Assembly (NCBI GenBank): GCA_045541795.1
Contig: JAZQJV010000003.1
Location: forward strand, 1,623 to 65,622
Direction: 5' to 3'
DNA: 64,000 nt
Source: Patescibacteria group bacterium
GTDB taxonomy: Bacteria > Patescibacteriota > Microgenomatia > UBA1400 > PJMF01
Each line of letters begins with the position of its first letter. Positions within the stretch are counted from its first letter, which is position 1. A program made the translations under genes and the position numbers. Under the pieces are notes generated by a model, which was given only the letters and a program-made list of their open reading frames with translations, was not told the origin of the DNA and searched no databases. Of the stretch, positions 3,036 to 59,480 are shown piece after piece.

Positions 3036-4202
3036 TTATAGGCTCAGCAGGCTGTCGCCGGAGGTGGCCACACAAAGTTCGCTGTAGAGCCGCTGGAGGC
3101 GGGCGTAGTCACCACGCTGCAGGTAGCGGCCATCCACAAAACGGTCGAGCTGGCCGGCCCAGGAACCAGATTGGACGTAATATTCGGTGTCATGTAGGGC
3201 CTGCCGGCCAGCGTGCACACTGGAGCGGTAATTTTGCCCGACCCGTTTGCCGGCCTTGAGGCCGTAACGGGTGGCGATACCGCCCACAAAAGGAATGCCG
3301 TAGGCGGCGGGCTGCAAGATGGTCTTTTTGTGATTGAGCTGGAGGCACAAGTGGAGCCGCAAAAACTCGTCGATGGCGTCTCGGGCGGCCAAAAGCCGGT
3401 CTTTGTCTGGATCAAGCAGGATCATGTCATCCACATAGCGGCCGTAATACTTGATGCCGAGCACATCTTTGACGAAATGATCGAGTTCTCCCAGATAGAT
3501 ATTGGAAAAAAGTTGACTGGTGAGATTGCCGATGGGGAAGCCGCGGTCGTCTGGGACGCCAAAAAGTGTCTTGTAGGCAGGCAAATCATCCCAGCCGTGG
3601 AGGTCGCCGCGCATACAGACACGGTAGGTAGGTCGAGCGAGGATGATAATGGGCAGGAGGTAGCGGAGCAAATCCATCATTTCTGGTTTGATCCTAGATT
3701 TGGGATCGGTGTACATCCGCTCGATGATCTGGAGCATTTTGCCGTGATGGATGCTAGTGAAATAGCTCTGGATGTCGAGCTTGAGCATCCAGGCGGGGCG
3801 GGTGAAATTGTGCGTCACTCGCCGCTGGAACTCCATGGCGCGCTCCATAGCAAAATGCGTGCCTTTGCCATGGCGGCAAGAGTAAGAATCAAAAATGAAA
3901 TGCCGCTCCCAGTAGGGATTGATGGCGTCAAAAACTAAGTGATGGACCACGCGATCACGGAAGGTGGCAGCAAAAACTTCGCGCTTTTTGGGCTCGGTGA
4001 CGATAAAGGCAATACTGGGCCCCAGCTCGTAAGTACGCGCAGCCAGATCGCGGTAGAGAGTGTAGAGATTGCGCTCGAGGTCAAGCTCAAAAAGGAGCTG
4101 ATTGGCGGTGGAGCGCTTATGGCGGCGAGCCTCAAAATAAGCAGTAAAAAGACGGTCAAAAATCCACTCCTGTTCTAATCCTACGGGATGGTGAACAATC
4201 AT
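3036..4202 (-). CDS. diversity-generating retroelement (DGR) reverse transcriptase
   Basis: 388 aa with RT motifs including YVDDMILL. The motif-4 region reads GFPIGNLTSQLFSNIYL, carrying the DGR-specific I/LGxxxSQ in place of QGxxxSP. A TR/VR pair lies immediately upstream on the same strand. Confidence 0.85.
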   Translation of the reverse strand: MIVHHPVGLEQEWIFDRLFTAYFEARRHKRSTANQLLFELDLERNLYTLYRDLAARTYELGPSIAFIVTEPKKREVFAATFRDRVVHHLVFDAINPYWERHFIFDSYSCRHGKGTHFAMERAMEFQRRVTHNFTRPAWMLKLDIQSYFTSIHHGKMLQIIERMYTDPKSRIKPEMMDLLRYLLPIIILARPTYRVCMRGDLHGWDDLPAYKTLFGVPDDRGFPIGNLTSQLFSNIYLGELDHFVKDVLGIKYYGRYVDDMILLDPDKDRLLAARDAIDEFLRLHLCLQLNHKKTILQPAAYGIPFVGGIATRYGLKAGKRVGQNYRSSVHAGRQALHDTEYYVQSGSWAGQLDRFVDGRYLQRGDYARLQRLYSELCVATSGDSLLSL

Positions 4203-5197
4203 TGGTTTTCGCTATCTGATTCGAATTGATGATCGGTTTTATTTTGCCAAGCGGCGAGGCTCTCATCCACCAGTACTTTGTATTTCATGAGCGTCGCCAG
4301 GTTTTCTGCCCGGAAAGCGCCGCATTCATACGCCAGGCGTAGGAGGAAAGAGACGGTGGCCATATCATCCTGGAGGTTGGAGAGATGCCGCCTGGAGACG
4401 TACCAAGTGTGATCTTGATCAGCGTCATACAGACAGCGGAAATTGTTTTCCATATCTATGATGAGCTGTAAGATAGTGGGTTGGAGCGAGGCTTTGTAAG
4501 CATGCTGGAAATGATTGGTACGGATGAAGGCTTCTTTGAGAAATTGGAAGAGGTAATTATACGTCTCCACGTTGGCATAGATAGGCCGGAGCTTGGCGAC
4601 GTTGGAGTCTTGAGCGATACATTCTTGGGCGTACCAGCGCTGGTAAGCTTTATTGTCTATGGGCGGCAGGCCTTTGAGGACGAGGCCATAGCAGTCTCCT
4701 TTTTTACCTTCGATCAGCTCCCAGGTGGCGTTATTATCAAGCGCACGCTCAAAAACGGCAGGCAGCGAGGCGACAGGAATACCTACACGCAGCAGGCGCT
4801 CGTCTTTTTGTGGCGGCTTGTCGCCGCGTACGGTAAGCCCCGGGCGCAGCAGCGTCAGCATCCGGTAAGCGCTGACATTATACGCATTGAGAAAATCACC
4901 AGTCGTCCAGAGGTAGACTTCGTTTTTGTTCATGGATTCTGCTTTGTAGATGTATTGGAGGTCGGCCGGGATGACTTTGACGTCGAGCACCGGGAGGGTC
5001 ACGCCCTTAGCGATCAGACGCTCGTACGCATCGCGGGCGGTTTTATTCACTGGGATTTTGGGGGATTTGGGATCCGGCGAGGAGGGAAAAGTGGAAGCCT
5101 TAGAGGCTTTATCTGGCATGACTATCCTTTCTATAATAATTCTTATGCCTAATTTGTTTACTAGAAGAATTGATAGCCGCCAGATGCGAGACGGCAA
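4199..5197 (-). CDS. hypothetical protein, candidate DGR accessory factor (not Avd-like in size)
   Basis: The 332-aa ORF overlaps the RT start by 4 nt (ATGA coupling) and sits between TR and RT. No recognisable family. The true start may be an internal Met (M27). Confidence 0.45.
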   Translation of the reverse strand: MPSRIWRLSILLVNKLGIRIIIERIVMPDKASKASTFPSSPDPKSPKIPVNKTARDAYERLIAKGVTLPVLDVKVIPADLQYIYKAESMNKNEVYLWTTGDFLNAYNVSAYRMLTLLRPGLTVRGDKPPQKDERLLRVGIPVASLPAVFERALDNNATWELIEGKKGDCYGLVLKGLPPIDNKAYQRWYAQECIAQDSNVAKLRPIYANVETYNYLFQFLKEAFIRTNHFQHAYKASLQPTILQLIIDMENNFRCLYDADQDHTWYVSRRHLSNLQDDMATVSFLLRLAYECGAFRAENLATLMKYKVLVDESLAAWQNKTDHQFESDSENQ

Positions 5198-5228
5198 CTA
5201 GATAAGGAGTGCGGGCAGAATTAAATGT

Positions 5229-5412
5229 GTCTTGGAGGCAGCGCACCGAAAACCCGTTGTACTTATTGTTGTTGTTCTGCGGGTAGATATTACTAGAATT
5301 CAAGTTCAGGTTGTACGCGTTCGTCGTTGAGTTAAGAGAGCTAGACCACCAGTTGGCGTTCGAGCCTTGATTGTTCAGCGAGGAACCATTGGCGTTGCCT
5401 GAGATAGCAGAC
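5229..5412 (-). repeat. DGR template repeat (TR)
   Basis: 184 bp, identical to 6236..6419 except 16 positions. Every one is T on the plus strand (A on the coding strand) in TR. It encodes the N-rich (AAC) version of the VR peptide. Confidence 0.85.
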
Positions 5413-6219
5413 AGACTCCGGGAAACCTGGGCGAGCCGCACGGCCCAGCCAGCCGAAATCCCAACAACCTGGTGCCAGCCGGGTACACGGCTATGCTGCA
5501 GTTGATCGCTCACCCACGGGGAAGCAAAAGAAGAAAAAGAAGAAAAGAGGCAGTGACAAGTACACAGACCAACAGCCCGTGTACACACTGGTGTGGACTT
5601 ACGCGCGGATGGCATCCACCCGAACTTGTAGCGCAAGTAGATCAATAGACTCAATCCTTCATGAGCCGGCGTCAGATAACCGCCAAAAGGTCGCAGTCGG
5701 CCAAGCCGACCAGCGAGCCCGGGCCCGACTACCCGCTCCTTACCTAGTTGTACCTCTAACTTAAAGAGCCACCCAGCTGGCGCAGCCAGCGGATCGGATA
5801 GACCACCCGCCAGCTCGGCTGGGTGCCGTCTCATAACCGCTCCAGTATAGCAGACATGCTGGCTCTTGTCAAGAGTGAATTGGGAGGAGCTGGTTTTTGA
5901 TATAGTTTGTATCATTTGTCCTTTTTTGGGCGCGGCCTGCGGCGCTTAGCGCCGCAGGCCATTGCCCTGCATCTTAGAGAGTAGAAAGTTTAGCGTTGGC
6001 TAGTAGTAGTTCCTTCAGGTGCCCTACCGGGAACCCTCGGGTGTCTGGGGCTGGCGCCAGATGGACGTCGCTGGGGCGGGCCGCAATGCGTGCGGCCGCC
6101 GGAGAGCTCCTATCTGGCCTGCCGCCAGGAGTTACCTGATCTAAAGTGTTTGGTGGTAAAGTTTTTTGTTCTTTCATATTTACTTTCTTAGTGATCTGTT
6201 TGATATAGTTTGCCATAAA

Positions 6220-7455
6220 TTAATAGTCTTGGAGGCAGCGCACCGAAAACCCGTAGTACTTAGCGTTGTTGTTCTGCGGGTAGATATTACTAGAACCCAA
6301 GCCCAGGTTGTACGCGCCCGTCGTTGAGTTAAGAGAGCTAGACCACCAGAAGGCGCCCGAGCCTTGATAGTACAGCGAGGAACCATGGGCGTTGCCTGAG
6401 ATAGCAGACTTCCCCGAGGCATTCCAAGCATTGGCGCCGCTAGTCCTAAACCAATTCCATGACGTAGCACAATCGCTACTCGTACAACCATGACTCACAC
6501 TACTTCCTTGGACCGCGTCGGCCAATGCTTGGAATTCTTCTTTGGTGGGTACATGCCAACCAATGGGACAAATATCATGGGTGGCTTCAGTAGTCCCATT
6601 GGTACGGTTATTATATGTACCATTGTAATTGGCAGTGGAATTATTCATCGCCGCCTGCCAGTTATAAAGGAAACCGTCATAGTTACCGCCGTCGGCAGCA
6701 TTACGGCAGATACCGTAGTAGCCGGAGGCGACTTTGTTTTGGACGGAGCCTTGGTAGCTAGCATTGAAATCATTACCCGTGAGGCTGGCACAATTGCCAA
6801 ATTGGAGGTTTTGAGCCATCCAGCAGTGACCATCTATAAATTTGCGGATGATGTATTGCTTATTGTCACGGGCATCGGTGAGCGTGCCCACGGTGGTGTA
6901 GCCAGTGCGCGATGTGGGCGTGGCAAATTGAGCACAGGCTGCCTTGGTAAAAGATTGCATGGTGGAACCGATACAAGTACACTGCTCGGTGGCACTATTA
7001 TAGATATAGGCATCCGAGCAGTCACAGCCCACACCATTGCCGATGCATTTACTAGTGGTGGCGTCCCAGGTGCTATTGTCGCCACAGTAATTGGAGCCGG
7101 TACACTGTTGGGTGTAGGCATTGGCAGAGGTGAAGCATTTGGCGTAGGCATTGGGATAGGTGACGCCGTCGGGGCAAGCGGTGGTGGCGGCAGACGTCCA
7201 GGTGTTATCGGCCGTGCGGATGAGTTTTAGTTGGCCGCCAGTGGCGATCACAGAGGCGAGGTCGGTATCAATGAGTTTGCGGGTGGTAGTGGTAGAAGAG
7301 GCAGCGTGGGCGGTGGGAATCAACCCCTCCCCTCTGGCACTGCGTGCCACCTCCCCTCCGTAAGGGGAGGAGTTATAAGAAGTGGGGGCTATGAGGGCTC
7401 GCCCCCCCCCAACGCATTTTGGGCCACCCCAAGGATGGCGGCAAGCACCAGACAA
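6220..7455 (-). CDS. DGR target (variable) protein; Cys-rich N-region plus C-terminal FISUMP/Fib_succ_major domain (C-type lectin fold)
   Basis: Motifs HCWMAQNL, FLYNWQAA, ICPIGWHVPT, WWSSS, GFSVRCLQDY. The VR covers the last ~60 codons. The ORF as called starts at a TTG. An ATG plus signal peptide lies upstream in another frame. Confidence 0.8.
   Translation of the reverse strand: MSGACRHPWGGPKCVGGGRALIAPTSYNSSPYGGEVARSARGEGLIPTAHAASSTTTTRKLIDTDLASVIATGGQLKLIRTADNTWTSAATTACPDGVTYPNAYAKCFTSANAYTQQCTGSNYCGDNSTWDATTSKCIGNGVGCDCSDAYIYNSATEQCTCIGSTMQSFTKAACAQFATPTSRTGYTTVGTLTDARDNKQYIIRKFIDGHCWMAQNLQFGNCASLTGNDFNASYQGSVQNKVASGYYGICRNAADGGNYDGFLYNWQAAMNNSTANYNGTYNNRTNGTTEATHDICPIGWHVPTKEEFQALADAVQGSSVSHGCTSSDCATSWNWFRTSGANAWNASGKSAISGNAHGSSLYYQGSGAFWWSSSLNSTTGAYNLGLGSSNIYPQNNNAKYYGFSVRCLQDY
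6236..6419 (-). repeat. DGR variable repeat (VR) at the 3' end of the target gene
   Basis: Aligned with TR 5229..5412. Differences are A->N only: H/N, YY/NN, GAF/NAN, G/N, G/N, A/N, Y/N. Confidence 0.85.
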
Positions 7456-7514
7456 GTACCGGTGGCTATTGCCCGGTGTGAGTGTATGTTGTTTTTGTTT
7501 TTCATCTTTTTCAT
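7389..7514 (-). CDS. signal-peptide-encoding 5' segment of the DGR target gene, out of frame with the body in this assembly
   Basis: ATG at 7514 gives MKKMKNKNNIHSHRAIATGTCLVLAAILGVAQNALGGGEPS*. One extra G in the G9 tract would fuse it in frame to ...RALIAPTSYNSSPY of ORF 6220..7455. Confidence 0.4.
   Translation of the reverse strand: MKKMKNKNNIHSHRAIATGTCLVLAAILGVAQNALGGGEPS
7402..7410 (-). other. homopolymeric tract (C9 on plus strand, G9 on coding strand); candidate slipped-strand phase-variation site or homopolymer sequencing error
   Basis: Read directly at 7401-7410 as gccccccccc. With G10 the signal peptide and lectin body are in frame. Confidence 0.6.
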
Positions 7515-7576: not shown

Positions 7577-7605
7577 ATATTAGCACGGGTGGCGGGATTT
7601 GTCAA
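7577..7605 (-). promoter_or_regulatory. candidate promoter of the DGR target gene (TTGACA-17-TAATAT)
   Basis: Minus strand reads cccTTGACAaatcccgccacccgtgcTAATAT, about 60 nt upstream of ATG 7514. Confidence 0.35.
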
Positions 7606-7739: not shown

Positions 7740-7858
7740 CGATCAATTCTGGGAAAATTAAGTCCTGCTAGGCGGCAATTTTCTGTAGAAATGCAAGTTA
7801 TCGGATTGCGTTTCTCGTTAAAAGGTGAAAATTGCTGGTGTCGGCTGACAACGCCTCC
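7740..7858 (-). pseudogene. degenerate tRNA-like fragment (5' acceptor, D stem, CCGATAA hairpin, variable arm; no T arm or 3' acceptor)
   Basis: It begins GGAGGCGTTGTCA, identical to the first 13 nt of the tRNA at 8004. It shares the loop CCGATAA and CGCCTAGCAGG with that tRNA. Confidence 0.3.
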
Positions 7859-7922
7859 TGGAATTGGTCGATTTTTGCGTTTGGATATCTTTGACCCCAC
7901 CGGGTGAACCCAATTACGCCAG

Positions 7923-8004
7923 CGGAGGCGATGGGCTTCGAACCCACAAGCCCTGCTAGGGCGACGACTTATCGGATCGTGTGTCTTTCCAATGACAACG
8001 CCTC
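7923..8004 (-). tRNA. tRNA, class II-like (long variable arm); anticodon loop CCGATAA, identity unresolved
   Basis: Acceptor GGAGGCG/CGCCTCC plus discriminator G. D arm GTC-ATTGGAAA-GAC. T arm GTGGG-TTCGAAG-CCCAT. Variable stem CCCT/AGGG. Its own TATAAT lies about 30 nt upstream on the minus strand. Confidence 0.5.
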
Positions 8005-8088
8005 CGTGAGTCCACCCGATAAGGTAAAGATGATGTATTATATCATGGTTTGATGGCATTTTGACGGAGAAATGCCCCGCCCCCCCCT

Positions 8089-8463
8089 CTAGTCTTCTAG
8101 CGCCTGGGTGAGCTGTGCCTCCGCCGAGGCGAGCTGGGCGGGACTGGTGGCCTCCATGATGGCGGAGACGAGGTCTTTGAGGAAGCTGGCGGAAATGGTG
8201 GCCACCTGGGTGGTTTCTAGGCGGGGTGAATCAATGACCACCGTCTGGGCGGCAGGCTGACGGGTGGAAGTTGCACTGGCGGAGGTGAGGTCTTGCTGGT
8301 CGGCGAGGCTGGAAATTTCTACCAGTAGGCGTGACCACTCCGGCGTGAAGATCTCAATGATGGCGCCCGTGGAGACGGCGGCGATCGCCAAAGAGGCGAG
8401 CGCCTCGAGAGCGATTTTTTTGAGTGAGTGGGCGGCGCCTGCTGGCGTGATAGATGTGGTCAT
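8089..8463 (-). CDS. hypothetical protein (~124 aa, hydrophobic N-terminal segment)
   Basis: The ORF 8089..8649 is trimmed to the Met at 8463. That Met is preceded by TATAAT plus 6 nt (leaderless). Confidence 0.4.
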   Translation of the reverse strand: MTTSITPAGAAHSLKKIALEALASLAIAAVSTGAIIEIFTPEWSRLLVEISSLADQQDLTSASATSTRQPAAQTVVIDSPRLETTQVATISASFLKDLVSAIMEATSPAQLASAEAQLTQALED

Positions 8464-10115: not shown

Positions 10116-13100
10116 ATGACAACAGAAGGAGCCAGATTATCAGCACAGGATCTAGGATTACCAGGTTGGAATTACGATCCCGAGCTGTCTAGACATGATG
10201 TTTTAACGGATACCGAATTGACTGAGGCATATGATGACAATGAGCGCCATGACGAAATAAATAAACTACGAAGTACGTACGAGCGTATCACTCATGAGTA
10301 TCAGCAGGATGGCGATACCGAGCTTTTGCTATCAGAGCTAAAGGTCCTATCTGCCTCAGCAGAGAAATTAACTAAAAAGTACCGTGAGCAGCGCATGGCA
10401 ATTTTGAAGAGCACTGAAAAAGACCCGGATGAAGTTTCACTTGCTTCTGCTCATTTAGCTTTCACAGCGATAAAGGATGTACATGACCTCACGGATAAAA
10501 TCAACGGGATCGTGGACACCGTCAGCGGCGAGGCAACAGCGCAAAAAGCGCCACTGGGATCGGAAACGAGGGCCGCTGGCGAGCCGACCAAGACAGAGCA
10601 GGCAGAGCCGGAAGTAAAACCGGCGGCAGAATCAACGCCAGAAGAAAAGCCGGCCGACAATGATACCGCCAAAACCGAGACTCAGCAAGAGAGCAAACCG
10701 GCCGAGAAGGAAGAACGGCCGCAAGAAAAACAAGAGGAAAAACCGGAAGAAAAGCTACCTTTCCAGCCAGAGCAAGTGAAGGTAAAAGGTGCAGACGGCA
10801 AAGAAAGACTGCTCAAACCTGAAGAGTTGGCTTGGTGGCAACCCGGCAAGACAGTAGAATGTATCAGTGGCTGGGATAAAATCGGCAGTGTGGCCGACGG
10901 CGGAATAGATAACGGCAGTCATATGTTCCGACTAGATAGCGGGACAGGACAGCTGATACTGCGCACGGCAGACGTGCCACCTACAGACAATGATAGCGTG
11001 GTGGATGAGCGTTTCCGCCCGCGGCGATTGGGAGAGATAAAAGAAATACAGGTACTCACGAGCGAGTGGAGCCAGACCAAGCAAGACGAGGCCGCACGGC
11101 GAAATGAGTATGAAGTGCTAGTCCGGACAAAAGACGGACGGGAATACCGTTTTGTGAGTACAGACAGCGAGATGTCACGTGAGCAAGCGCGAGTGGCTTA
11201 TGAGCAAGAGCAACAGGAGCAGCGTCAGGCCGCCCAGGCGCGAGAAGAAGAGCGGACTAAAGCTATCGAAGGCCACGAAAAAGAGCTGGCGATGGCGGAG
11301 CTTTTGGGGATCAAGGAAGATCTACACCAGATCAGCGAGGCGGCCACTATCGGCCTGCGTGACGACGGCAGCAACCGGCTGGATGAGAACAGTTTTGACA
11401 GTCTCCACCGAGAAATCCGCCGGAGCGTACTCACCAGGCGTCTGGAGACAGTGACAGCCATGCTAGAAGGTGGCGCGAGCGAGGACGAGCGGCGGGAGCT
11501 GGTAGCCGAGCAGGCGGCAATCCGTGAAGAGTTAAGTAAACTCAATGCTGCCGGGACGGCGCTAGAATTTGGTGAAATCAAAGATAAAAACGGGAAATTG
11601 ATCCTGAAGGCACGCGAGTACCAAAATTACCGTGAAGCGCTCAAAGGGGAAATCAAGGCCAGATCTACCCAACTAGAGCGTTACGCCGAGCGCGCCAACA
11701 AAAAAGATGGCCTCAAACCGCATGAGAGGTACGCTTTTGAGGAAGCACGCAAGGCTCTGGATGAGGCGATCGCCGTACAGCTAGAATATGAAGCCATAGC
11801 CGAGTATGATAGTTACCAGGCGCGGATAAATGCTATCAGCGAGGCGACGATCACTTACAAAGGTAGTGATAATAAAGACGTGACGGTGGATTTGCGCTCA
11901 GACGAAAAGAGCAAAAACGGAGAGATTTTATCTTTGCAGGGCAAACTTGCCGAGCTGGGTGACCAGATCGCGGCGGCGCAAGATTTCATCACTCGGATAG
12001 AGCAAAACCCTAATGCCCGTTATGACAAGCAGACGGTGGCAGAGGTAAAAGAAAAACGAGAACTGATCAAAGCCAAAAACAAGCAAGCTGAGCAAATCCG
12101 TGAAGTAATGCGCCAGCTGGAAGAAAAAGCCAGGAATTTGATGACTTTGCGTCAGGTCTTTTACCTACAAGCGCACGGTCGGGTGGAAGAAGAAGATGCC
12201 GCTCGCAGTGAGATGGGTATCGCTTATGACGTGACCAACGGCAATAATGAGTTTTTTAGCTATGCACTCACGGTGGCTTTAGGCAGCAGCGGTATCCAGG
12301 AGCAGTTAAAAGACTCTACGCTCAATGCAGACGGCCTGGCAGACATTTTGATCGGCCGGATGACACAAATTCATGACGACGCCGAGCGAGAATCCTCCCG
12401 TGGCAGCGGTATCGCTCGGGCGGTAAACTCTTTGCGGATGCTGAGTTTGTCTAGTACTTTCATTGATAAGGCTTACTACGGGATCGCAGGCAACGATGGC
12501 GTTTTTTCCAATAAACTCACTAGTGAGATGCTCATGATGTCTGGCGCGCAGCTGCTGCAAGCCAAGCGCAAGGCGCTAGAAGCCGTGCGCTACCGGGCGG
12601 GAGATTATGGTAGCACCAGCATAGACGATCAAGAAAATGCGCGCTGGCAAAAATTGAGAGCGGCCGAGGAAAATTGGGCAGCGAAAGACGCTGGCTTGAT
12701 GCCCAGAGTGATGGCCGCCGAGGATAATCTTGCTGAGCAAGACAGGAAACATCCGGCGGGATATAAGATCACGGCTGAGATACCGGTGGGTTATGAGTCC
12801 ATAGACCAAGCGATCGCCAGAGATGAGAATGCCCAGCGTGGTCAACAGCGCCGACGGGAAGCAGTAGGGCAGGCCAAGGGACAGCTAGACGACACGGTGG
12901 CGAGCCGGCTGGAGGACTTGCAGCCATACCGGGCAGAAGTCGATAGATACCGGGAAGATGTTTTCGCCAAGTATGACCGGTTGATGAGCGAGTGGGAGAC
13001 GGAAAAGAAGGCACTGAAAGCACAGGTAGACGCCAAGCAGACAGAAATCCAGGGTCTACTCAAGCAAAAGCAAGCACTGGAGGATGAGCGGAGACGTCGG

Positions 13101-15569
13101 CTTTTCCAGCTGGATCAACGGGCAGCCGCTGCCAGTGGTGAAAGTTTGCGCGAGATACAGGATGACCGGGCAGAAGTGATCACCGAGTACTCCGGCGGAC
13201 TAGAGGAAATAAACGAAAAACTGGCGACAACGTACCAAGAGTTGACCGCTCTACAGCCGGAAAAACTGGAAAGTGATGTCAGTTTCCAGGATTGGTTGGC
13301 AGAAAAAGGAATGCAACTTGATGCCGAAGAACTGGAAATTTTGCAGCCGTACTTAGACAAGATGGCCGAGGCCAACCGAGCATTCCAGACGCAGCGGAAA
13401 TTTGTGTCTCAAGTGAAATCCACGTGGCTTTTTACCGTGGTGGGGTCTTTTAACAACAGCAAGATGAGCTTGACGGCGGGTACCAATGAAATGGGTGGCT
13501 TTTTTGGCCGGCTAGATCAGACGAGCCACTTACGGCCAGACGGCGTGTCTAATCCAGAGGTGATGGAGGCAAATGATCTGTGGAATAAAAACTTTGGCAC
13601 GGGGAAGTTTGACGCTGAGGCGCAGCGTTACTTGGGAGAAAATGGGGACTTACAGCGGATAGTAGCAATGTGTGTACAGGAGCTGCGCAACCCGCGGAGT
13701 AAATACTGGGCGGGCAATAGTGACCTGAGTCAGAGTGACGGCGTGCGCAAGCTGGTGGATGAGATGTTTGACACGTACTGCAATACTGAGGGCCGGGAGA
13801 CGATCGGCAAGATGAGTAAGGAGCAGCGAGAGTTTGATAAGCAGCTGGTACTGATAAAAATTGCACGTGATGACTTGGTGCGTAAATACGCCGTGGAGGC
13901 TTACGGCGTGTGGTTTACCGCCCTGAAAAACAAGCAGTGGGACAAGCTGACGCATAGCGGCGTGCTGATGGCACTGACGTATGGACTGGTGAGGGGGAAA
14001 AATGGCAGCATGCGGGCGATGTTGGATTTTATAGATCTGGATGAGATCACGGCTAAAATACAGGCGCAAATAGATAAGTATTATCCGGAGGGCGATCCAG
14101 AAGAAGAAAGGCAATATCGCGGGCTTCAAGAAAAAATCGAGACGGAAGAGTTGATTATGCGCGAAGAAATGCGCAAGAATAATGAAGCCGGCCGCTTGCA
14201 GGCGGAAGAAAGAATTAGTAAGTTGCGCCGGAGTGTCGGAGACTTAGGAAAACGGTACGATCAGATGTCATCACTGGATCTATTGAAGGCGAGAGTACAG
14301 AGACACAAACTTTATTTAGATGCTGCCTTCCCCCATGGAACTTTAGATGAACGTGCTCAAATACGCCAGCAAGCCGTCGATACGAAACGCGAAAATGACG
14401 CAATTATACGTAGAGAACTAGAAAAATCTCAAGAAAACAAGCCTGGCTTAATGAGGAGGATATGGCGGGTGTTTGTTGGCAGCGAGAATCAGCCATCTGT
14501 ACGGGAAGAAACTGTAAAATATCAGTATACCTTTTCGGAAGAGGATTATATAAATACTTTCCTGAAATCTGGGGACGTGGAACTTACTGATCAGCAAATT
14601 CGCGAATTGGTACAGCGAGCCAGAGAACGTGGGGATATAGTTGACGGCCAAACTACCAGATCATCCACTGACTCAAATGGGACAACGAAAACTGAAGTAG
14701 TTGGCTCGCAAACAGTTGAATTTAAACCAATTAAACTCAATCTTAAAGCTGATTATTCATTTAAACCGAGGAAATTTAGTGATGATGCCCCTACAATGGA
14801 TGCTTACCTCAATCAACCTCCAGAAGGCAGGCAAGCAGCCGCCGATTGGCTCGATGCTCATGACGCTTTTGGCGAGATCATCGCTATGTGCAGCAGTCCG
14901 ATAGACAAAGGCTTGATAGAAGACCCGGAAAAACTGGTGGAAGCGATCAATAAGATCAATACCAATTTCTCACGGATTGCCTCGATCGCCCTAGATAATA
15001 GTGATGCTAATATTGCAGGTTTGCCTGGATCGGACGTAAAATATAACTACATGCGCGAAATGGCGGAGGCAGCATATTGCGGCTGGATAGAGAATGTGTT
15101 GCACACAGTTGGTGGGGCGCATCCCAGGCGTTTAATTGATGATGAAGGGATGCCAACCGATAGCAATAAAAAGTACGTCAGAGATTTTAATTCGATCCTA
15201 GCCGCTGTAAGGAGTTCTTTAGGCGACTTGGGTAGCAATTCGAGGAATAAATCAATTTATAACGAGAAAATTCATGCAATCCTAGATCTGAACTCTAAAT
15301 ATTATATGGGTCCAGAACAAGATATATATGAGCCAGATCCTTATGGGGAAGCTGCGTACGCATTCAGATATAAGGATTTTGTGGATGGTAATTTATTGCA
15401 ATATCTAGTAATGGACGTCGGTAAAAAAGTTGGTTATGCTGACTCTCATGGTACTTTGTTTGCGAAATGGAATGAACAAAGTAAGAGGATGGAATTGATA
15501 CCAGGTATGAGAATGCCAGATGAAATCTTACAGGTACTGAGAGAACCACTTACAGATTCTGATGGCTAA
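10116..15569 (+). CDS. giant acidic coiled-coil protein (1817 aa), hypothetical
   Basis: A single uninterrupted ORF. The N-terminus is E/K/P-rich with low complexity, followed by extensive heptad-like segments. No signal peptide or TM segment. Confidence 0.6.
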   Translation: MTTEGARLSAQDLGLPGWNYDPELSRHDVLTDTELTEAYDDNERHDEINKLRSTYERITHEYQQDGDTELLLSELKVLSASAEKLTKKYREQRMAILKSTEKDPDEVSLASAHLAFTAIKDVHDLTDKINGIVDTVSGEATAQKAPLGSETRAAGEPTKTEQAEPEVKPAAESTPEEKPADNDTAKTETQQESKPAEKEERPQEKQEEKPEEKLPFQPEQVKVKGADGKERLLKPEELAWWQPGKTVECISGWDKIGSVADGGIDNGSHMFRLDSGTGQLILRTADVPPTDNDSVVDERFRPRRLGEIKEIQVLTSEWSQTKQDEAARRNEYEVLVRTKDGREYRFVSTDSEMSREQARVAYEQEQQEQRQAAQAREEERTKAIEGHEKELAMAELLGIKEDLHQISEAATIGLRDDGSNRLDENSFDSLHREIRRSVLTRRLETVTAMLEGGASEDERRELVAEQAAIREELSKLNAAGTALEFGEIKDKNGKLILKAREYQNYREALKGEIKARSTQLERYAERANKKDGLKPHERYAFEEARKALDEAIAVQLEYEAIAEYDSYQARINAISEATITYKGSDNKDVTVDLRSDEKSKNGEILSLQGKLAELGDQIAAAQDFITRIEQNPNARYDKQTVAEVKEKRELIKAKNKQAEQIREVMRQLEEKARNLMTLRQVFYLQAHGRVEEEDAARSEMGIAYDVTNGNNEFFSYALTVALGSSGIQEQLKDSTLNADGLADILIGRMTQIHDDAERESSRGSGIARAVNSLRMLSLSSTFIDKAYYGIAGNDGVFSNKLTSEMLMMSGAQLLQAKRKALEAVRYRAGDYGSTSIDDQENARWQKLRAAEENWAAKDAGLMPRVMAAEDNLAEQDRKHPAGYKITAEIPVGYESIDQAIARDENAQRGQQRRREAVGQAKGQLDDTVASRLEDLQPYRAEVDRYREDVFAKYDRLMSEWETEKKALKAQVDAKQTEIQGLLKQKQALEDERRRRLFQLDQRAAAASGESLREIQDDRAEVITEYSGGLEEINEKLATTYQELTALQPEKLESDVSFQDWLAEKGMQLDAEELEILQPYLDKMAEANRAFQTQRKFVSQVKSTWLFTVVGSFNNSKMSLTAGTNEMGGFFGRLDQTSHLRPDGVSNPEVMEANDLWNKNFGTGKFDAEAQRYLGENGDLQRIVAMCVQELRNPRSKYWAGNSDLSQSDGVRKLVDEMFDTYCNTEGRETIGKMSKEQREFDKQLVLIKIARDDLVRKYAVEAYGVWFTALKNKQWDKLTHSGVLMALTYGLVRGKNGSMRAMLDFIDLDEITAKIQAQIDKYYPEGDPEEERQYRGLQEKIETEELIMREEMRKNNEAGRLQAEERISKLRRSVGDLGKRYDQMSSLDLLKARVQRHKLYLDAAFPHGTLDERAQIRQQAVDTKRENDAIIRRELEKSQENKPGLMRRIWRVFVGSENQPSVREETVKYQYTFSEEDYINTFLKSGDVELTDQQIRELVQRARERGDIVDGQTTRSSTDSNGTTKTEVVGSQTVEFKPIKLNLKADYSFKPRKFSDDAPTMDAYLNQPPEGRQAAADWLDAHDAFGEIIAMCSSPIDKGLIEDPEKLVEAINKINTNFSRIASIALDNSDANIAGLPGSDVKYNYMREMAEAAYCGWIENVLHTVGGAHPRRLIDDEGMPTDSNKKYVRDFNSILAAVRSSLGDLGSNSRNKSIYNEKIHAILDLNSKYYMGPEQDIYEPDPYGEAAYAFRYKDFVDGNLLQYLVMDVGKKVGYADSHGTLFAKWNEQSKRMELIPGMRMPDEILQVLREPLTDSDG

Positions 15570-21564: not shown

Positions 21565-22836
21565 TCATGATTTACGCTTTTCTAAGGCTTCCAAGCCTGG
21601 TAATTTTTTGCCGGCTAGATATTCCAGGGCGGCAGAGCCGGCCATACTCACATAATCCACTTGATCAGTGTAGCCGAGTTTGTCCAGAGCCGCCAGGGTG
21701 TCTCCCCCACCCACCAGGGTGACGGCGCCAGTTTTGGCCACCGCGCGGGCGACTTCCCTGGTGCCGGTGGCAAAAGGCTTGCGCTCAAAAATCCCCATCG
21801 GGCCGTTCCAAAAAACGGTTTCAGCCTGGAGGATGAGTTCGCGGTAGAGTTTGGTAGTCTTCGGGCCGATATCCAGGTACATGTTTTTACCGCGTTTGGC
21901 GATTTTGTCATTGTCAGTGAGGTCGACAATTTCGGTTTGTCGGCTGTCAAAGCCGGGAGCGGCCACCACATCCACGGGATAAATAATTTTGGGCAGCGGG
22001 ATATAGCCGTCTTTGAGCAGGCGGCGAGACCGGTTATCAGTGATGATCTGGTCGGCGAGATCGACGTAATTGAGGCCGACTTTGCGCAGATCGGCGGGCG
22101 TATCTTGGAGGTAGGATTTTTGCACCGCCAAGCCCACGGCCTTGAGGAAATTGTTGGCCACGCCGCCACCGATGAGGACAGCATCCGCGATTTTGGCCAG
22201 ATTGACGATGGGGTCAATTTTGTCTGAGATTTTGGCGCCGCCCACCACCACCACAAAAGGATGAGCCGGCGTGGCCAGTAAGTGAGAAAAAGCATCCACC
22301 TCGTCTGCCAAAGCCAGGCCGGCGGCCGCCGGGAGGACACCCGGGAGGCCGTACACCGAAGCGTGAGCGCGGTGAGAGCTGGAGAAAGCATCATTGACGT
22401 AAGCGTCAGCCAGGGAGGCAAGCGTTTTCACAAAATCGGGGTCATTTTTCTTTTCGCCAGGGTAAAAACGCAAGTTTTCCAGCAAAAAAACGCTGCCAGC
22501 GGGGCTGGCGGTGATTTGCTCGCGAATGGGTGCCGGGTCTAAGTAGTCCGGGACAAAAGTAAGCGGCCAGGAAGTGGCTTTGCGCAGGTAATTAAAAACT
22601 GGTTTGAGGGAAAATTTTTTTTGATCGGGGCTTTCGGGGCGGCCAAGATGAGAGATGAGAATGACCTTACAGTTGAGCCGGAGTAAATATTCTACGGTAC
22701 GAAATGAAGCCTGGATACGGCGGGGATCGCGTACCACATAGCCGGCGCCGTTGGCGGAAAGCGGGACGTTGTAATCCACGCGGACGATGACGGTTTTGTT
22801 GGCTAGTGAGAGACTGGAAAGTTGGGTAATTGACAT
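21565..22836 (-). CDS. pgk: phosphoglycerate kinase
   Basis: VIVRVDYNVPL, the hinge GGGA region and the C-terminal ATP-binding motifs. Trimmed to MSITQL, which sits 7 nt after TGGTATCAT. Confidence 0.9.
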   Translation of the reverse strand: MSITQLSSLSLANKTVIVRVDYNVPLSANGAGYVVRDPRRIQASFRTVEYLLRLNCKVILISHLGRPESPDQKKFSLKPVFNYLRKATSWPLTFVPDYLDPAPIREQITASPAGSVFLLENLRFYPGEKKNDPDFVKTLASLADAYVNDAFSSSHRAHASVYGLPGVLPAAAGLALADEVDAFSHLLATPAHPFVVVVGGAKISDKIDPIVNLAKIADAVLIGGGVANNFLKAVGLAVQKSYLQDTPADLRKVGLNYVDLADQIITDNRSRRLLKDGYIPLPKIIYPVDVVAAPGFDSRQTEIVDLTDNDKIAKRGKNMYLDIGPKTTKLYRELILQAETVFWNGPMGIFERKPFATGTREVARAVAKTGAVTLVGGGDTLAALDKLGYTDQVDYVSMAGSAALEYLAGKKLPGLEALEKRKS

Positions 22837-24489: not shown

Positions 24490-24770
24490 AAGTGGCGATA
24501 ATTGCCAGTGAAAAGGCTTTTTGCTAGCAAAAGTGGGAAAAATTGGGGAGTTTTGCTAGTGGAAGAGGGGTTTTGTTGGCAAAAAAGGCCCGTTAGCAGC
24601 AACTGCCGACGGGCCAGGTTTTCTTTCACTTGCCGGTAAACTTACCAAACGCCATCTTGAGCCAGGAGAAATTCCAGGGCTGATGAAGCTTGTCAAGAGC
24701 CCATTTTTCTCCCTTTCGGCACCCCATAATACCTCCGGTTTACCAAAAATTGTAACTAGAACCGTTTTCC

Positions 24771-24832
24771 GTTTACAAAAGTAGGTAAAAATAGTAAGTT
24801 TTGTAAATAGAAATGGAATTTGGTTACAAAAA
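24771..24832 (+). repeat. 62-bp direct repeat, copy 1 (GTTTACAAAAGTAGGTAAAAATAGTAAGTTTTGTAAATAGAAATGGAATTTGGTTACAAAAA)
   Basis: Exact second copy at 26106..26167. The pair flanks the AAA ATPase gene and its promoter. Confidence 0.7.
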
Positions 24833-24833
24833 C

Positions 24834-24862
24834 TTGACATTTTCCCGCGGCCGTGTTATAAT
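24834..24862 (+). promoter_or_regulatory. promoter TTGACA-17-TATAAT for the AAA ATPase gene (leaderless, 7 nt to ATG)
   Basis: cTTGACAttttcccgcggccgtgtTATAATtacatatATG. Confidence 0.55.
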
Positions 24863-24869
24863 TACATAT

Positions 24870-26090
24870 ATGAAAATAATTGAAAGACATTATTTGCGTG
24901 AGCTACTAGCGGTACTGCATACTCCCGATATTAAAGTGATTACTGGCGTGCGGCGGGCGGGTAAATCCACGCTTTTGCAACAGTTGACTGAGCACATTAT
25001 CCACAATATCCCTCAGAGTAACTTGATCCATATCAACTATAATCTTCACGATTTTTATCATTTGCGCGACCACGAGTCAGCGTATGCGTATATCAGCGAG
25101 CGTCTGCGGCCCAGCCTGGAAAATTACGTATTGATTGATGAAGTACAGATGTGTGACGGCTTTGAGTGGGTGATTAACAGCTTACATGCTAGCGGCAGGT
25201 GTCACATCGTGATCACAGGCTCAAATGCCTTTCTTGAACACACTGATTTAGGCACGCTTTTTGTGGGGCGGATTTATTCTCTCCAGATGTACCCGTTTTC
25301 TTTTCGTGAATATTGCCGGTATTTTCCTCGCCTTTATATTGATGATGCTTGGGATCGATATTTGCGTGATGGCGGCTTTGCTGGTAGCTATGAGTATCCA
25401 AATAGTGAGCAAAAAAGTACTTATGTCCGTGATGTTTTCCGGACGTTAATTGTCCGTGACATCGTGGGAAAATATAAAATCAAAGATGAAGCAATGTTGC
25501 AACAACTGATTGACTTTTTAGCCGACAATATCGGCAATATCACCTCCGCCAATAAGATTGCCAACGTTTTGAATGCCTCTGGAGTGGATACCAATCACAA
25601 TACCGTCAACGCCTACCTAGACTATTTGTGCCGGAGTTTTGCCTTTTACCGGGTGCGCCGGTATGACATCAAGGGTAAGGATTATCTGCGCTCTCAAGAC
25701 AAATATTACCTAGTAGATCCAAGTTTTCGCACAGCGCGTCTAGGTAATCGTTTCCCAGATTATGGATTGGTTTTTGAAAACATCGTCGCGATAGAACTTC
25801 TGCGGCGCGGCTGGGAGTTATATGTGGGTGTGGTCAGCAGCAAAGATCTGGAAATAGATTTTGTGGCCAGAAAGGCTGACCGCGAGCTTTATATCCAAGT
25901 AAGCGATGATATATCTCGAGACGAGACGCTAAATCGGGAACTGAGTTCGCTACAAGCCGTAAAGAATAACCACCCGAAGATCATTTTGGCCCGGACGAGG
26001 GCAGACGCTGGCACGAGAGACGGCATTATCATTGCCGATCTGGCGCGCACACTCGCCAATCCCCATGCCTTTGATGAGCTAAAATTGTAA
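24870..26090 (+). CDS. AAA+ ATPase, DUF4143 family
   Basis: Walker A GVRRAGKST, Walker B VLIDEVQ, then ITGS...LGTLFVGRIYSLQMYPFSFRE (DUF4143). The ORF 24813 is trimmed to MKIIERH. Confidence 0.75.
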   Translation: MKIIERHYLRELLAVLHTPDIKVITGVRRAGKSTLLQQLTEHIIHNIPQSNLIHINYNLHDFYHLRDHESAYAYISERLRPSLENYVLIDEVQMCDGFEWVINSLHASGRCHIVITGSNAFLEHTDLGTLFVGRIYSLQMYPFSFREYCRYFPRLYIDDAWDRYLRDGGFAGSYEYPNSEQKSTYVRDVFRTLIVRDIVGKYKIKDEAMLQQLIDFLADNIGNITSANKIANVLNASGVDTNHNTVNAYLDYLCRSFAFYRVRRYDIKGKDYLRSQDKYYLVDPSFRTARLGNRFPDYGLVFENIVAIELLRRGWELYVGVVSSKDLEIDFVARKADRELYIQVSDDISRDETLNRELSSLQAVKNNHPKIILARTRADAGTRDGIIIADLARTLANPHAFDELKL

Positions 26091-26105
26091 ACAAAGACGA
26101 TTTTT

Positions 26106-26167
26106 GTTTACAAAAGTAGGTAAAAATAGTAAGTTTTGTAAATAGAAATGGAATTTGGTTACAAAAA
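26106..26167 (+). repeat. 62-bp direct repeat, copy 2
   Basis: Identical to 24771..24832. Confidence 0.7.
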
Positions 26168-26744: not shown

Positions 26745-28889
26745 ATGTTTAAATTATTTAAGAAAAACGAAGAGAACAAGCAAGAAGCACCAAAACGGTT
26801 TTTTAGTGTCTTGATGGCGCCAAATCTAGTGCAAGCGGCAATGTGGGAAGCGGCAGACATCGTGAAAGTGCTGGCCAAGTCCCCTACTCGGCCGTATTTT
26901 AATGATAATGACCTACTCGTAAAACTTGACCAGTGTTTGCAGGATCTAGGGCCTGACGGCGAAAGCGTGCACCAGACACTTTTTCACTTAGATAGTTCGT
27001 TTTTGTTGGGCGACGACCTCACGCCAGACGCCAAAAACCTTTTCCAGCGGATCACGGAGCAGCTGCAGCTAGAGTCGCTCGGATTTGTGACCAATACCGA
27101 AAGTGTGGTCAATGCCAAACTAGAAATGACGCCAGAGCTGACCCGCCAGCTGGTGGTGGAATTCACGCCGTCCAAGACAAATTTTGCTCTTTTTGAAGGG
27201 AAAAGTCTGATCGAAACGGTGAGTATGCCGGCGGAGGGGAATTTCGCCGAGCAGACCAAGAGTGTTCTCGTGCAATTGGCCGGTAAAATTGGTGCTGATT
27301 ATACGGCATTTTTTGAGGTAAATGATCAAATTCCGTCTACTTCACCTGCTGAGCCTTTGGTAATGGATTTGGTCTCTGGACAGATCACGAGTGAAGAAAT
27401 CCAGACTAAATTAAACATGCTGCCGGCCAATCTGCCGCTCAAGGCAGAAGTGCTCGGGAGTGAGATTTTGCTGTCTTTTATATTGTTGCCCAGCGCCACA
27501 ATCATTGCTACTTCTTACGGCTGGATCAAGCCGCCGGCGAGCGAGCCTGAAACTCCTCCGGCGAGCACACCGCCGGCAGAAGCGGTGGCGGCCGAGCCGA
27601 TACCGGTACTCTCGCGCCAAAAGGGCGCAAGCAAGGCGATCGTGCCGCAAGTAGATGCGGGAGATTTTGCGATCGAGACGAAGTCCCCAAAACCAAAAAA
27701 ACCGATGTCTCACGGCGCCAAAATGGGACTTTTGGTGTTGATTTTGATCATCGTGATGATAGCGGCCACTGGTTTGATTTTTTGGTGGCTGGTACAGGCT
27801 GGCGAAGCCACCGTAAGCGTCAGTGCCAAACACGACTTCCTCACCAAGACGCTGGAAGTCAGCATCGATCCTGAGGCCAAGGAAGCCGACTATGAGAAGT
27901 CCATCTTGCCAGGCACGGTCAAAGTGGGTAACCTAGAGGTTAGCATCGAGTACCCCACCACGGGCACAAAAAACGTGGGCGAAAAGGCGCAGGGAAAGGT
28001 GAAAATCTATAATAGGACAGAAAAAGAGCAGAAAATTGCTGCAGGCACTGAATTAGAAAACGGCGTGGTAAGTTTTGTGACAAAGGATGAAATTACAGTG
28101 AAGGCTGCCGAAAAAGGTAAGGAAATAAATGGTCAAAAAGTGGATGTGTTAGGTGAAGCTGAGGTCGATGTAATTGCATCAACTGTGGGAACAGCCGGAA
28201 ACATTAAAAAAGAGACATCGTTGCGTGTAGGCTCTGCGAATAAAGAAGAATTATATGCCGAAGCTAAGGAAGACTTTACCGGCGGTACTGACAAGACAAT
28301 CAAGGTCTTTTCCAAAGAAGACAAAGAAGCCGCCCTCAAGCTCGCCGAGGAAGAACTGGCGGCATCGGCGGCCGAGCAGATAGACGAGAAAAAGGGTAAA
28401 GTTTACCAGGTACCGCAGCTGGATGAAATGGAAATTACCTCTAGCGAATTTGACAAGGACGTAGATGAGGAAACAGAAACAGTTCTTTTGACCATGAAAG
28501 GCACGGTGCCGGTGATCTCCTTCACTCAAGACGACTTCAAGCCGCTGGCGCAGGCCACGATCGAAAAACTGTTGCCTGAAGGTTATGAGCTAGAAGGCGA
28601 GCTAGAGTTGCTGTCAACTCTAGACGACAAAAAAACTGCCCGCGGCAACGGCCAAATTTACGTAAAACTAGACCTTACTCAAAAGACCGTCAGCAGCGTC
28701 AACGTGGACGAGATCAAAGCGGCGCTTTTGGGCCAGAACTTGGCTAAGGTGGCCAATATCTTAGACCGGTATGAGGGCATAGACAGCTATAAGGTGGACT
28801 GGAACAGTCAGCTGACCCCCACGATCACCCACTCCATGCCGAGCAAGGCCAGCAAGCTTAAGGTAAATCTGGTGGAAAGCATCGAATAA
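26745..28889 (+). CDS. hypothetical single-pass membrane protein (N-in, large C-terminal exo-domain), upstream of the sortase gene
   Basis: 714 aa. A TM helix MGLLVLILIIVMIAATGLIFWWLV occurs near residue 330. The A/P/E-rich linker lies upstream of that TM. Confidence 0.5.
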   Translation: MFKLFKKNEENKQEAPKRFFSVLMAPNLVQAAMWEAADIVKVLAKSPTRPYFNDNDLLVKLDQCLQDLGPDGESVHQTLFHLDSSFLLGDDLTPDAKNLFQRITEQLQLESLGFVTNTESVVNAKLEMTPELTRQLVVEFTPSKTNFALFEGKSLIETVSMPAEGNFAEQTKSVLVQLAGKIGADYTAFFEVNDQIPSTSPAEPLVMDLVSGQITSEEIQTKLNMLPANLPLKAEVLGSEILLSFILLPSATIIATSYGWIKPPASEPETPPASTPPAEAVAAEPIPVLSRQKGASKAIVPQVDAGDFAIETKSPKPKKPMSHGAKMGLLVLILIIVMIAATGLIFWWLVQAGEATVSVSAKHDFLTKTLEVSIDPEAKEADYEKSILPGTVKVGNLEVSIEYPTTGTKNVGEKAQGKVKIYNRTEKEQKIAAGTELENGVVSFVTKDEITVKAAEKGKEINGQKVDVLGEAEVDVIASTVGTAGNIKKETSLRVGSANKEELYAEAKEDFTGGTDKTIKVFSKEDKEAALKLAEEELAASAAEQIDEKKGKVYQVPQLDEMEITSSEFDKDVDEETETVLLTMKGTVPVISFTQDDFKPLAQATIEKLLPEGYELEGELELLSTLDDKKTARGNGQIYVKLDLTQKTVSSVNVDEIKAALLGQNLAKVANILDRYEGIDSYKVDWNSQLTPTITHSMPSKASKLKVNLVESIE

Positions 28890-28899
28890 GGAGGCGGGC

Positions 28900-29640
28900 G
28901 TGAGTGAGGTGGCAAAAAAACCCGGGGCAAACTGGCCGCTTTACTTACTCATGAGTGCAGGGCTGGGGTTGATATTGCTAGCCGGCGTACCTTTTGCCCG
29001 GGGATGGTGGCAACAAATACTGGATTCACAGGCGGAAAACATCGTCTACCCGCTAGAGATGAATGAGTTTTGGGCGCGAGTGGAAGCCAACCCCAAAATC
29101 ATCGCGGACATTGACGCCGTGACGGCGAAAGCGCCCACAATCGTGGACGAGATCGACTACGGCAACATCGAAAACTGGTTTAGTGACGGGAAATTCCACG
29201 CGCAAAAGCAGACGTCGCAAAGCTATACGCTTGACATAGAAAAGCTCGGTATAAAAAATGCCCTCGTAAAGGTGGGCGGTACAAATATTGATCACAATTT
29301 GGTACAATTTAATACCGACCGGACGATCGGCGATTATGGAGCGCCGGTGATTTTTGGTCACAGCATGCTGCGGCAGTTTTATAATCCCAAGGAAACCAAT
29401 AAAGAGCGATACAAAGGTATTTTCTCCACTATCATGACACTGGAGACGGGAGATGAGATCAAAATCACCATTGCTGGCGTGACGTACACTTTCTTGGTGA
29501 CGGAAAAAAAGGAAGTCAAGCCTGACGATGATTATATCATGAGTCAGGATGTAAGCAAAAAACAAATTAAATTGGTGACGTGCACGCCCGAAGGCACGAG
29601 GCTGCGGCGCGGAGTAATCACGGCAGAGCTAAAAAGTTGA
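28900..29640 (+). CDS. sortase-family transpeptidase
   Basis: His in APVIFGHSML, Cys in KLVTCTPEG (TLxTC-like), Arg in RLRRGV, and an N-terminal membrane anchor. Confidence 0.7.
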   Translation: MSEVAKKPGANWPLYLLMSAGLGLILLAGVPFARGWWQQILDSQAENIVYPLEMNEFWARVEANPKIIADIDAVTAKAPTIVDEIDYGNIENWFSDGKFHAQKQTSQSYTLDIEKLGIKNALVKVGGTNIDHNLVQFNTDRTIGDYGAPVIFGHSMLRQFYNPKETNKERYKGIFSTIMTLETGDEIKITIAGVTYTFLVTEKKEVKPDDDYIMSQDVSKKQIKLVTCTPEGTRLRRGVITAELKS

Positions 29641-48346: not shown

Positions 48347-49816
<1,470 letters not shown>

Positions 49817-49930
49817 CTATGCGCCTTATTATAACATGGAAATGGGGCGTGTGGAGTAGGAAAATGAAGGCGGGTGAAAATCACGTTTTGGCCGATTCCT
49901 CTCCCCGCCCCACCCGAAGTTATAGTCCTT

Positions 49931-50025
49931 GGTGGAGGTGGCGGCGTGGGCGGCAGGAATCACCCCCTCCTCTCTGGTACTGCGTGCCTCCTCCCCTTTG
50001 TAAGGGGAGGAGTTATGTGAGGATT
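49931..50025 (-). repeat. ~95-bp diverged copy of the 5' coding region of the DGR target gene (7281..7384), including the stem-loop CCTCCCCT..GTAAGGGGAGG
   Basis: About 85% nt identity. Its translation NSSPYKGEEARSTREEGVIPAAHAATST aligns with NSSPYGGEVARSARGEGLIPTAHAASST of the target. Confidence 0.5.
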
Positions 50026-51261: not shown

Positions 51262-51269
51262 GAGGGCGA

Positions 51270-51298
51270 TTATAGCACGACTGAGGCTTGTTGTCAAG
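51270..51298 (-). promoter_or_regulatory. promoter TTGACA-17-TATAAT, 7 nt upstream of the ATPase ATG
   Basis: Minus strand TTGACAacaagcctcagtcgtgcTATAATcgccctcATG. Confidence 0.5.
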
Positions 51299-59068: not shown

Positions 59069-59089
59069 AAGGGATATTTTAGCAAAAAA

Positions 59090-59480
59090 TAAAACGGTTT
59101 TCAAGTGGAAGGATGATAAAAGTTTTCCACAAAACGGTGGAAAAGTAAGTGGGAAAGGTCGTGCGTAAAGCGGTGAAATAATGGTGAGATGAAAGTGTAA
59201 AGGTAATGGAGAAGGTGGAGAAAATGCGAGGAGTAGTTTTTTATGCACAAAATGAGGGAAAGTTTTCCCCGACCCGAAACGGAGTTTTACACAGGCGAAA
59301 ATTACCACCCGAAACTTCGTAATGAGAAAATAGCAGCGATGTATAGGTATTTTATTGTATGGATAAAAATGAGGCGGCGAGTTTTCCACCGAGTTTGGCG
59401 TCCCTACTATTTACTACTAAATATTTATAGATTTGTATGGACAACTTGTTTTTGGTAAAAATTTAATGTGGAACTACAAA
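59090..59480. promoter_or_regulatory. candidate oriC: cluster of DnaA-box-like 9-mers (TTTTCCACA, TTTTCCACC x2, TTTTACACA, TTTTCCCCG) plus an AT-rich segment, upstream of dnaN
   Basis: Boxes at 59123-59131, 59137-59145 (reverse), 59263, 59285 and 59382. The AT-rich segment is tatttactactaaatatttatagatttgtatgg at 59405-59440. Confidence 0.4.

Follow-up and report, generated by a model that had tools for sequence, protein, structure and literature searches.

A nine-guanine frameshift site between the signal peptide and the lectin-like body of a diversity-generating retroelement target gene in a Patescibacteria contig

We analysed a 64,000-nt stretch of DNA from a Patescibacteria group bacterium (contig JAZQJV010000003.1; hereafter the window), in which the target gene of a diversity-generating retroelement (DGR) is split between two reading frames at a run of nine guanines (G9). 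A short open reading frame (ORF) on the minus strand, ORF1, begins at the ATG at 7514 with a predicted signal peptide, enters the G9 tract and stops shortly after it; the body of the target, ending in a lectin-like domain, continues in another frame (Table 1). An earlier note on this DNA had drawn attention to the junction as a site of phase-variable expression or of assembly error. It had placed the signal-peptide ORF, the tract and the TTG-started lectin ORF in the +2 frame correctly. The out-of-frame stop that it reported after the tract exists as well, with just three sense codons (E-P-S) between the run and the TAG at 7391–7389 rather than the ten it had counted.

ORF1 reads MKKMKNKNNIHSHRAIATGTCLVLAAILGVAQNALGGGEPS followed by the stop, and the tract makes up codons 35–38 of the gene. 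The body lies in a 411-codon ORF (6220–7455) that opens with TTG and is in the +2 (that is, −1) frame relative to ORF1. This frame is free of stops upstream to 7512, the first base translated. By frame arithmetic, ten Gs give a single 431-residue ORF reading ...NALGGG-RALIAPTSYNSSPYGGE..., and a change of one G toggles the product between 41 residues (G9) and this fusion with the body (G10). The earlier note's claim that one extra G joins the two ORFs thus holds, and the homologues described below are all fused in the same way. The public gene call (P0001, 376 residues, on a 67,709-nt NCBI contig) starts at GTG 7350 and carries no signal peptide; it is a shortened reading of an exported protein's frameshifted gene, and its annotation calls for correction.

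The gene is a genuine DGR target, as had been proposed. Its variable region (VR) and the template region (TR) form a 184-nt repeat with 17 differences, every one at a TR adenine (17/17), and a reverse transcriptase (RT) gene with an RVT_1 domain lies nearby. Because all TR/VR mismatches fall at TR adenines and the RT is intact, the DGR has been working recently, and the cassette looks intact and recently active. The C-terminal domain of the target matches Fib_succ_major (PF09603, E = 2.7e-20). Pfam gave no accessory-protein match among the ORFs at 5974–6216, 5109–5915 and 4199–5197. Known DGR targets with a C-terminal variable domain of the lectin type include Mtd of Bordetella phage and those of DGRs of the candidate phyla radiation (CPR)/Patescibacteria. 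The window resembles them in having the VR at the 3′ end of the target, the TR beside the RT, substitution at adenines only and an N-terminal export signal; it differs in that its domain matches Fib_succ_major, in that Pfam reveals no Avd-type gene, and in that the export signal is out of frame.

The N-terminus of ORF1 is predicted to be a Sec-type signal peptide from its charge, its hydropathy and the small residues at −3 and −1. Residues 1–14 have a net charge of +5, the best 11-residue Kyte-Doolittle window (CLVLAAILGVA) scores 2.89, equal to or above the values of homologue signal peptides, and GVA↓Q satisfies the −3/−1 rule by inspection. On the same scale, no hydrophobic segment was found at the alternative starts TTG 7455 and GTG 7350. 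Both halves of the earlier description, a plausible Sec signal peptide on ORF1 and none on the lectin ORF, are borne out. A promoter-like site lies ~60 nt upstream of ATG 7514. The missing Shine-Dalgarno sequence before this ATG was considered as an objection to ORF1 and rejected, because 13 of the 18 other ATG or GTG gene starts that we checked have no such sequence within 16 nt either. Many genes of the window have a TATAAT −10 box ~5–14 nt before the start codon and no Shine-Dalgarno sequence, among them those starting at ATG 2973(−), 17866(−), 23749(+), 44060(+), 48264(−), 59503(+) and 8462(−), four of which have an upstream TG extension. Such near-start −10 boxes suggest that leaderless or near-leaderless mRNAs are widespread in this genome.

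We collected homologues by searching with the fused protein, which returned P0001 and a small family of relatives. The family is rare, with only 10 representatives among 1.84 billion proteins in an exhaustive HMMER search with the N-terminal domain. Eight complete N-termini were examined (P0002, P0005, P0012, P0013, P0014, P0115, P0116 and P0237; P0003, cut by a contig end, was left out), and all eight have a basic and hydrophobic N-terminus in one ORF with a mature start of the form AHAA(T/S)STTTT(R/K)K. The conserved signal-peptide/mature junction is AHA↓A(S/T)STTTT; the signal peptide ends at an AxA motif in P0237 (…LLLCSPQVHA↓ASSSTTTRKLID, that is, VHA↓ASSSTTT) and likewise in P0014 (AAA↓ASSTTTT). 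Hydrophobicity upstream of the G tract is confined to the frame of ORF1, and after the tract the body frame reads RALI...SSPYGGE where P0002 has RAII-SSPFGGE. Because the homologues are fused, the RALI/RAII segments match and ORF1 is the sole hydrophobic frame, we read ORF1 and the lectin body as the two halves of one gene. The lesion is located between ~7425 and 7401, where the G run is the sole mutable site. The eight fused N-termini point to the in-frame G10 form as ancestral and functional, and to the assembled G9 form as a secretion-null (OFF) allele. A candidate pair of natural ON and OFF orthologues, P0004 (421 residues) and P0116 (449 residues), was rejected as a mere difference in gene calls, because the two agree in every base of the 250 nt compared, a stretch that runs slightly beyond the signal-peptide/mature junction.

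Between the G tract and the mature protein lies a palindromic repeat that the earlier note had overlooked. Its core in the window comprises two hairpins, one of 8 bp (CCTCCCCT/AGGGGAGG) and one of 6 bp whose loop is GCA, and a GAGGGGAGGGG tail; in its general form the element has CTCCTCCCCT-N5-AGGGGAGG, a hairpin whose loop is GNA, and a tail of GAGGGGAG. In frame, with the pattern SSP[YFA].GE..RS..GE., it also occurs in P0002 and P0005 (two tandem copies each) and in P0115. Since it is absent from P0116, P0014 and P0237, it would be an insertion between the hydrophobic region of the signal peptide and the AxA site. The element pattern matched seven contigs of GTDB genomes. Copies lie at 326–452 in L001, 458–584 in L002, 4821–4867 in L004, 2666–2713 in L008 and 7510–7552 in L011, and the element is intergenic in L006, L007, L009 and L010. 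On contigs labelled Bacteroidales it is intergenic and sometimes tandem. One Candidatus Nomurabacteria contig carries it in frame within ligA, at a 15-residue gap relative to E. coli LigA (2OWO), and another metagenome-assembled genome (MAG) carries it in frame and in reverse orientation within the gene for the CCA-adding enzyme (cca). The insert adds ~11–16 residues to its host proteins. Over eight copies, helix 2 shows compensatory changes at two pairs, with 96% of cells paired against 50–60% when the partners are slid.

Occurring in intergenic DNA as well as in frame within unrelated genes, the element appears to be an in-frame palindromic repeat like the Rickettsia palindromic elements (RPE), selfish palindromic repeats that Ogata and colleagues reportedly described in 2000 as lying in frame in protein-coding genes. 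It shares with RPE this twofold distribution, the unrelated genes here being the target family, ligA and cca. It differs in having another and much shorter sequence and in occurring on Patescibacteria and Bacteroidales MAG contigs; the likeness is one of behaviour. A shallow literature search found no prior description of the element in Patescibacteria, and Rfam gave nothing at the gathering threshold, with chance-level matches only, around the tract and the element. As an in-frame palindromic repeat in genes of several MAG lineages, it may be of broader interest than the G tract.

A second copy in the window, copy B, has its element core at 49967–50011 (−) and is flanked by a DUF4143 ATPase gene (50065–51297) and guaB (48347–49804). 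Because it carries the family-specific IPAAHAATST besides the element, we take copy B to be a stranded 5′ fragment of a gene of the DGR-target family. In the window the DGR lies upstream of argS, and argS and guaB are 45 kb apart; in the nearest relative found, L015 (10001–14886), argS, guaB and guaA are contiguous. The separation suggests a rearrangement that involved the 5′ end of the target gene.

The repeat may also account for the tract itself. In the window, GCG TTG GGG GGG GG(G) CGA GCC aligns with GCC AGA GGG GAG GGG ACA GCC in L001 and L002, where the stretch is the GGGGAGGGG tail of an upstream copy of the element; a codon-for-codon match to this tail demands exactly 10 Gs. From this single alignment of low-complexity sequence we infer that the tract is probably a mutated, uninterrupted form of the G-rich tail of the palindromic repeat.

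These observations fit one gene that would encode a Sec-type signal peptide, a linker with the in-frame palindromic repeat, the AHA↓A(S/T)STTTT junction, a small Cys-rich N-domain and Fib_succ_major, its lectin-like C-terminus being diversified by the adjacent DGR. A G-rich repeat tail lodged in the signal-peptide region would have become an uninterrupted run through base substitutions. With nine Gs assembled where ten are needed, translation from ATG 7514 would stop after 41 codons and the lectin body would be made only without its export signal, which would make this the secretion-null (OFF) allele. In the living population, tracts would then stochastically and reversibly gain or lose one G and so turn export of the DGR-diversified protein on and off, the OFF length being the one in the assembled consensus. 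Because a G run of 9–10 nt is intrinsically prone to slipped-strand mispairing, we consider reversible one-G change the most likely mechanism, and we put the probability of a real, slippage-prone length variant of which the OFF allele was assembled at about 0.5. We regard the site as an accidental, young hypermutable tract rather than a conserved and selected contingency switch. We judge it an ordinary homopolymer frameshift; from sequence alone it may be a reversible switch, a dead gene or a sequencing error.

Several results weigh against a real length variant. No other homopolymer in the 64 kb is as long as the tract, whose position coincides exactly with the frame junction; nevertheless, when the window was shuffled 100 times with dinucleotides preserved, a G9 run turned up on one strand or the other in 32 shuffles, so its occurrence is not statistically exceptional. 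The tract is also the only run longer than 8 nt, and for this reason the quality argument from runs of 7–8 nt, given below, covers it incompletely. In the DNA of homologous genes (seven loci, of five distinct sequences: L001–L005, L013 and L014) the tract is absent and the longest run is 5 nt, which marks the tract as lineage-specific. The similarity seen by eye between ORF1 and the signal peptide of P0116 was not significant by BLASTP, and we therefore claim a shared architecture and no homology of the signal peptides. Finally, the protein, GTDB, JGI metagenome and viral collections searched yielded no second assembly of the species. The RT, GuaB, P0001 and the NCBI homologues P0012 and P0014 had no exact protein match in the searched index. 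Searching GTDB genomes and JGI metagenomes with an alignment of the N-domain gave pattern matches, none of which was confirmed. A degenerate DNA pattern for TTTRKLIDT(D/P)LA had no match in the metagenomes although L004 has the pattern, so the sample of L004 lies outside that collection. Viral contigs had no match to the tract flank and none to the palindromic element pattern. The nearest relatives of the organism are 83% identical in PGK and 68% in ArgRS; among named organisms, its PGK comes closest to proteins of Patescibacteria, Pacebacteria and Woesebacteria, at ~53–54% identity. The nearest one with a contig (L015, ArgRS 68%) offers no orthologous locus for comparison, because argS, guaB and guaA are adjacent there with no DGR.

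We next weighed the site as an evolved contingency locus. Two of four defining features are present: a homopolymer of at least ~7–8 nt within coding sequence (G9), and a one-unit change that switches between a full-length and a truncated product. One fails, as the tract shows neither compositional excess nor conservation. Poly-G/C tracts of this length are established sites of phase variation in other bacteria (PMC3786947, PMC8355987), and an excess of homopolymers close to the 5′ ends of genes has been reported (PMC2831843). Like the poly-G/C loci of Neisseria, Haemophilus and Campylobacter (hmbR/hpuAB), the window has a G run of ~9 nt early in the coding sequence of a gene whose product is exported or surface-located, with a one-G toggle. 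Unlike the window, those loci have demonstrated length polymorphism, affect many genes and in many cases persist from strain to strain; the window offers a single tract in a single assembly, with no conservation and no statistical excess. The case for an evolved switch is weak, and the "two-layer variation system" suggested in the earlier note finds no support here, given that homologues lack the tract and that shuffled windows produce it by chance. It is doubtful that this is a working contingency switch gating export of the DGR lectin, one created when a selfish palindromic repeat invaded the signal-peptide region and supplied its G-rich arm. If it were, an episymbiont of the Patescibacteria would couple random ON/OFF switching of display to massive variation in the sequence of one and the same ligand-binding protein, and a mobile repeat would have been turned into a tool of phase variation. 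A full-text literature search found no paper on coupling between a DGR target and homopolymer phase variation. Should the tract vary in vivo, it would represent an undescribed coupling of a simple-sequence switch with DGR hypervariation in the same surface protein; Patescibacteria are believed to rely on such proteins for attaching to host cells.

Apart from a real variant, the explanation that survives best is an artefact of sequencing or assembly, in which the organism has G10 and an intact gene and the consensus dropped one G. The source is a MAG contig, the single-base lesion falls in the longest homopolymer of the window, a classic place for consensus indel errors, and the remainder of the gene and the DGR looks intact and recently active. 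Set against this, the window has 25 homopolymers of at least 7 nt, ~15 of them A/T runs of 7–8 nt within long ORFs that remain intact, and no break interrupts the ORFs of 4574, 1817 and 1181 codons; there is no sign of systematic homopolymer error in the assembly. Short-read consensus at moderate depth also normally resolves a 9-nt run. We consider an artefact possible, while giving it appreciably less credence than a real length variant.

Fixed pseudogenisation, in which a real −1 deletion abolished export and the gene is decaying with no meaningful switching back, appears unlikely. It would agree with the lineage-specific, non-conserved tract, with further debris of the family in the genome (copy B upstream of guaB) and with the local rearrangement relative to the nearest relative. 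However, there is no second lesion, the 411-codon body is open, the RT is intact and the TR/VR differences are confined to adenines, and a G9 run is expected to revert at high frequency by the same slippage.

Recoding of the G9 message into full-length protein, whether ribosomes shift to the −1 frame on G GGG GGG or RNA polymerase slips and adds a G to the mRNA, is very improbable. In its favour, the body occupies the −1 frame and (tt)G GGG GGG, read in the 0 frame, has the form X XXY YYZ. However, heptamers made of G alone slip poorly, there is no stimulatory structure at the usual distance of 5–9 nt (the first stable hairpin is ~31 nt downstream), the regional fold is unexceptional (z = −1.55), an Rfam frameshift-element match lies on the opposite strand and, at 13.8 bits, falls below the gathering score of 45, and no homologue conserves the arrangement, so the site does not qualify as a programmed −1 ribosomal frameshift site. 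Homopolymer frameshifts are rescued by transcriptional slippage in reduced genomes (poly-A tracts of Buchnera and Blochmannia), which speaks for recoding, although the known cases of efficient transcriptional slippage use A/T runs. The ancient homopolymer frameshifts of insect endosymbionts, reportedly rescued by polymerase slippage according to Tamas and colleagues in 2008 and Wernegreen and colleagues in 2010, resemble the window in that a reduced-genome bacterium has a frameshift in a homopolymer of an otherwise intact gene; theirs are poly-A/T and conserved across strains, whereas the tract here is poly-G and non-conserved.

Table 1. Positions of the target gene, its repeat element and the DGR components in the window
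Feature	Position	Strand	Remark
Sigma-70-type promoter-like site, TTGACA-17-TAATAT with TG extension	7577–7605	minus	Consensus match only, 10/12
ORF1, 41 codons: signal-peptide n- and h-region, G tract, out-of-frame codons, TAG	7389–7514	minus	Translation
G9 homopolymer, frame-breaking site	7402–7410	minus (plus strand, C9)	
DGR target body, −1 frame: linker, family-specific Cys-rich N-domain, C-terminal Fib_succ_major	6220–7401	minus	
87-nt stretch: element plus IP(T/A)AHAA(S/T)ST codons	7290–7376	minus	Duplicate of 49930–50016 (alignment columns 45–131)
Palindromic element core, 45 nt	7327–7371	minus	In frame reads SSPYGGEVARSARGEG
AHA codons, conserved signal-peptidase-type motif	7303–7311	minus	Cleavage inferred from element-free homologues
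DGR variable region (VR), 3′ end of target gene	6226–6409	minus	
DGR template region (TR)	5229–5412	minus	
DGR reverse transcriptase gene, intact	3036–4202	minus	Pfam RVT_1, E = 4.7e-15
Copy B: element plus AHAATST-coding stretch, intergenic, just upstream of guaB	49930–50016	minus	

Other features of the window were noted in passing. The second-longest G/C run, a G8 at 8080–8087 (−), is non-coding, lies one base after the stop of the small ORF at 8089–8462 and sits ~75 nt upstream of a tRNA; T8 runs lie at 22615–22622 and 57357–57364. ARAGORN called an unusually long (84-nt) tRNA-Ile(GAT) at 7922–8005 (−), parts of which (ggaggcgttgtca; tccgataa with partly matching upstream bases) recur ~140–170 nt downstream at ~7790–7876 (−), adjoining a 21-nt inverted repeat. 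This tRNA-Ile region may be duplicated, interrupted or intron-bearing. An 87-nt direct repeat, 91% identical between 24746–24832 and 26081–26167 and with a weaker copy at 24498–24584, brackets one of three AAA_14/DUF4143 ATPase paralogues (15–1154, 24813–26090 and 50065–51297), and the ORF that follows each copy has its start codon and first codons within that copy. Giant ORFs occupy 30132–43856 (−; 4574 codons), 10116–15569 (+; 1817 codons) and 55844–59389 (−; 1181 codons); the latter two were scanned against Pfam and gave no match. Near the giant ORFs are genes for a sortase (28900–29640) and a Baseplate_J-like protein (26745–28889), and together these genes resemble the extensive set of surface proteins that is typical of episymbiotic Patescibacteria.

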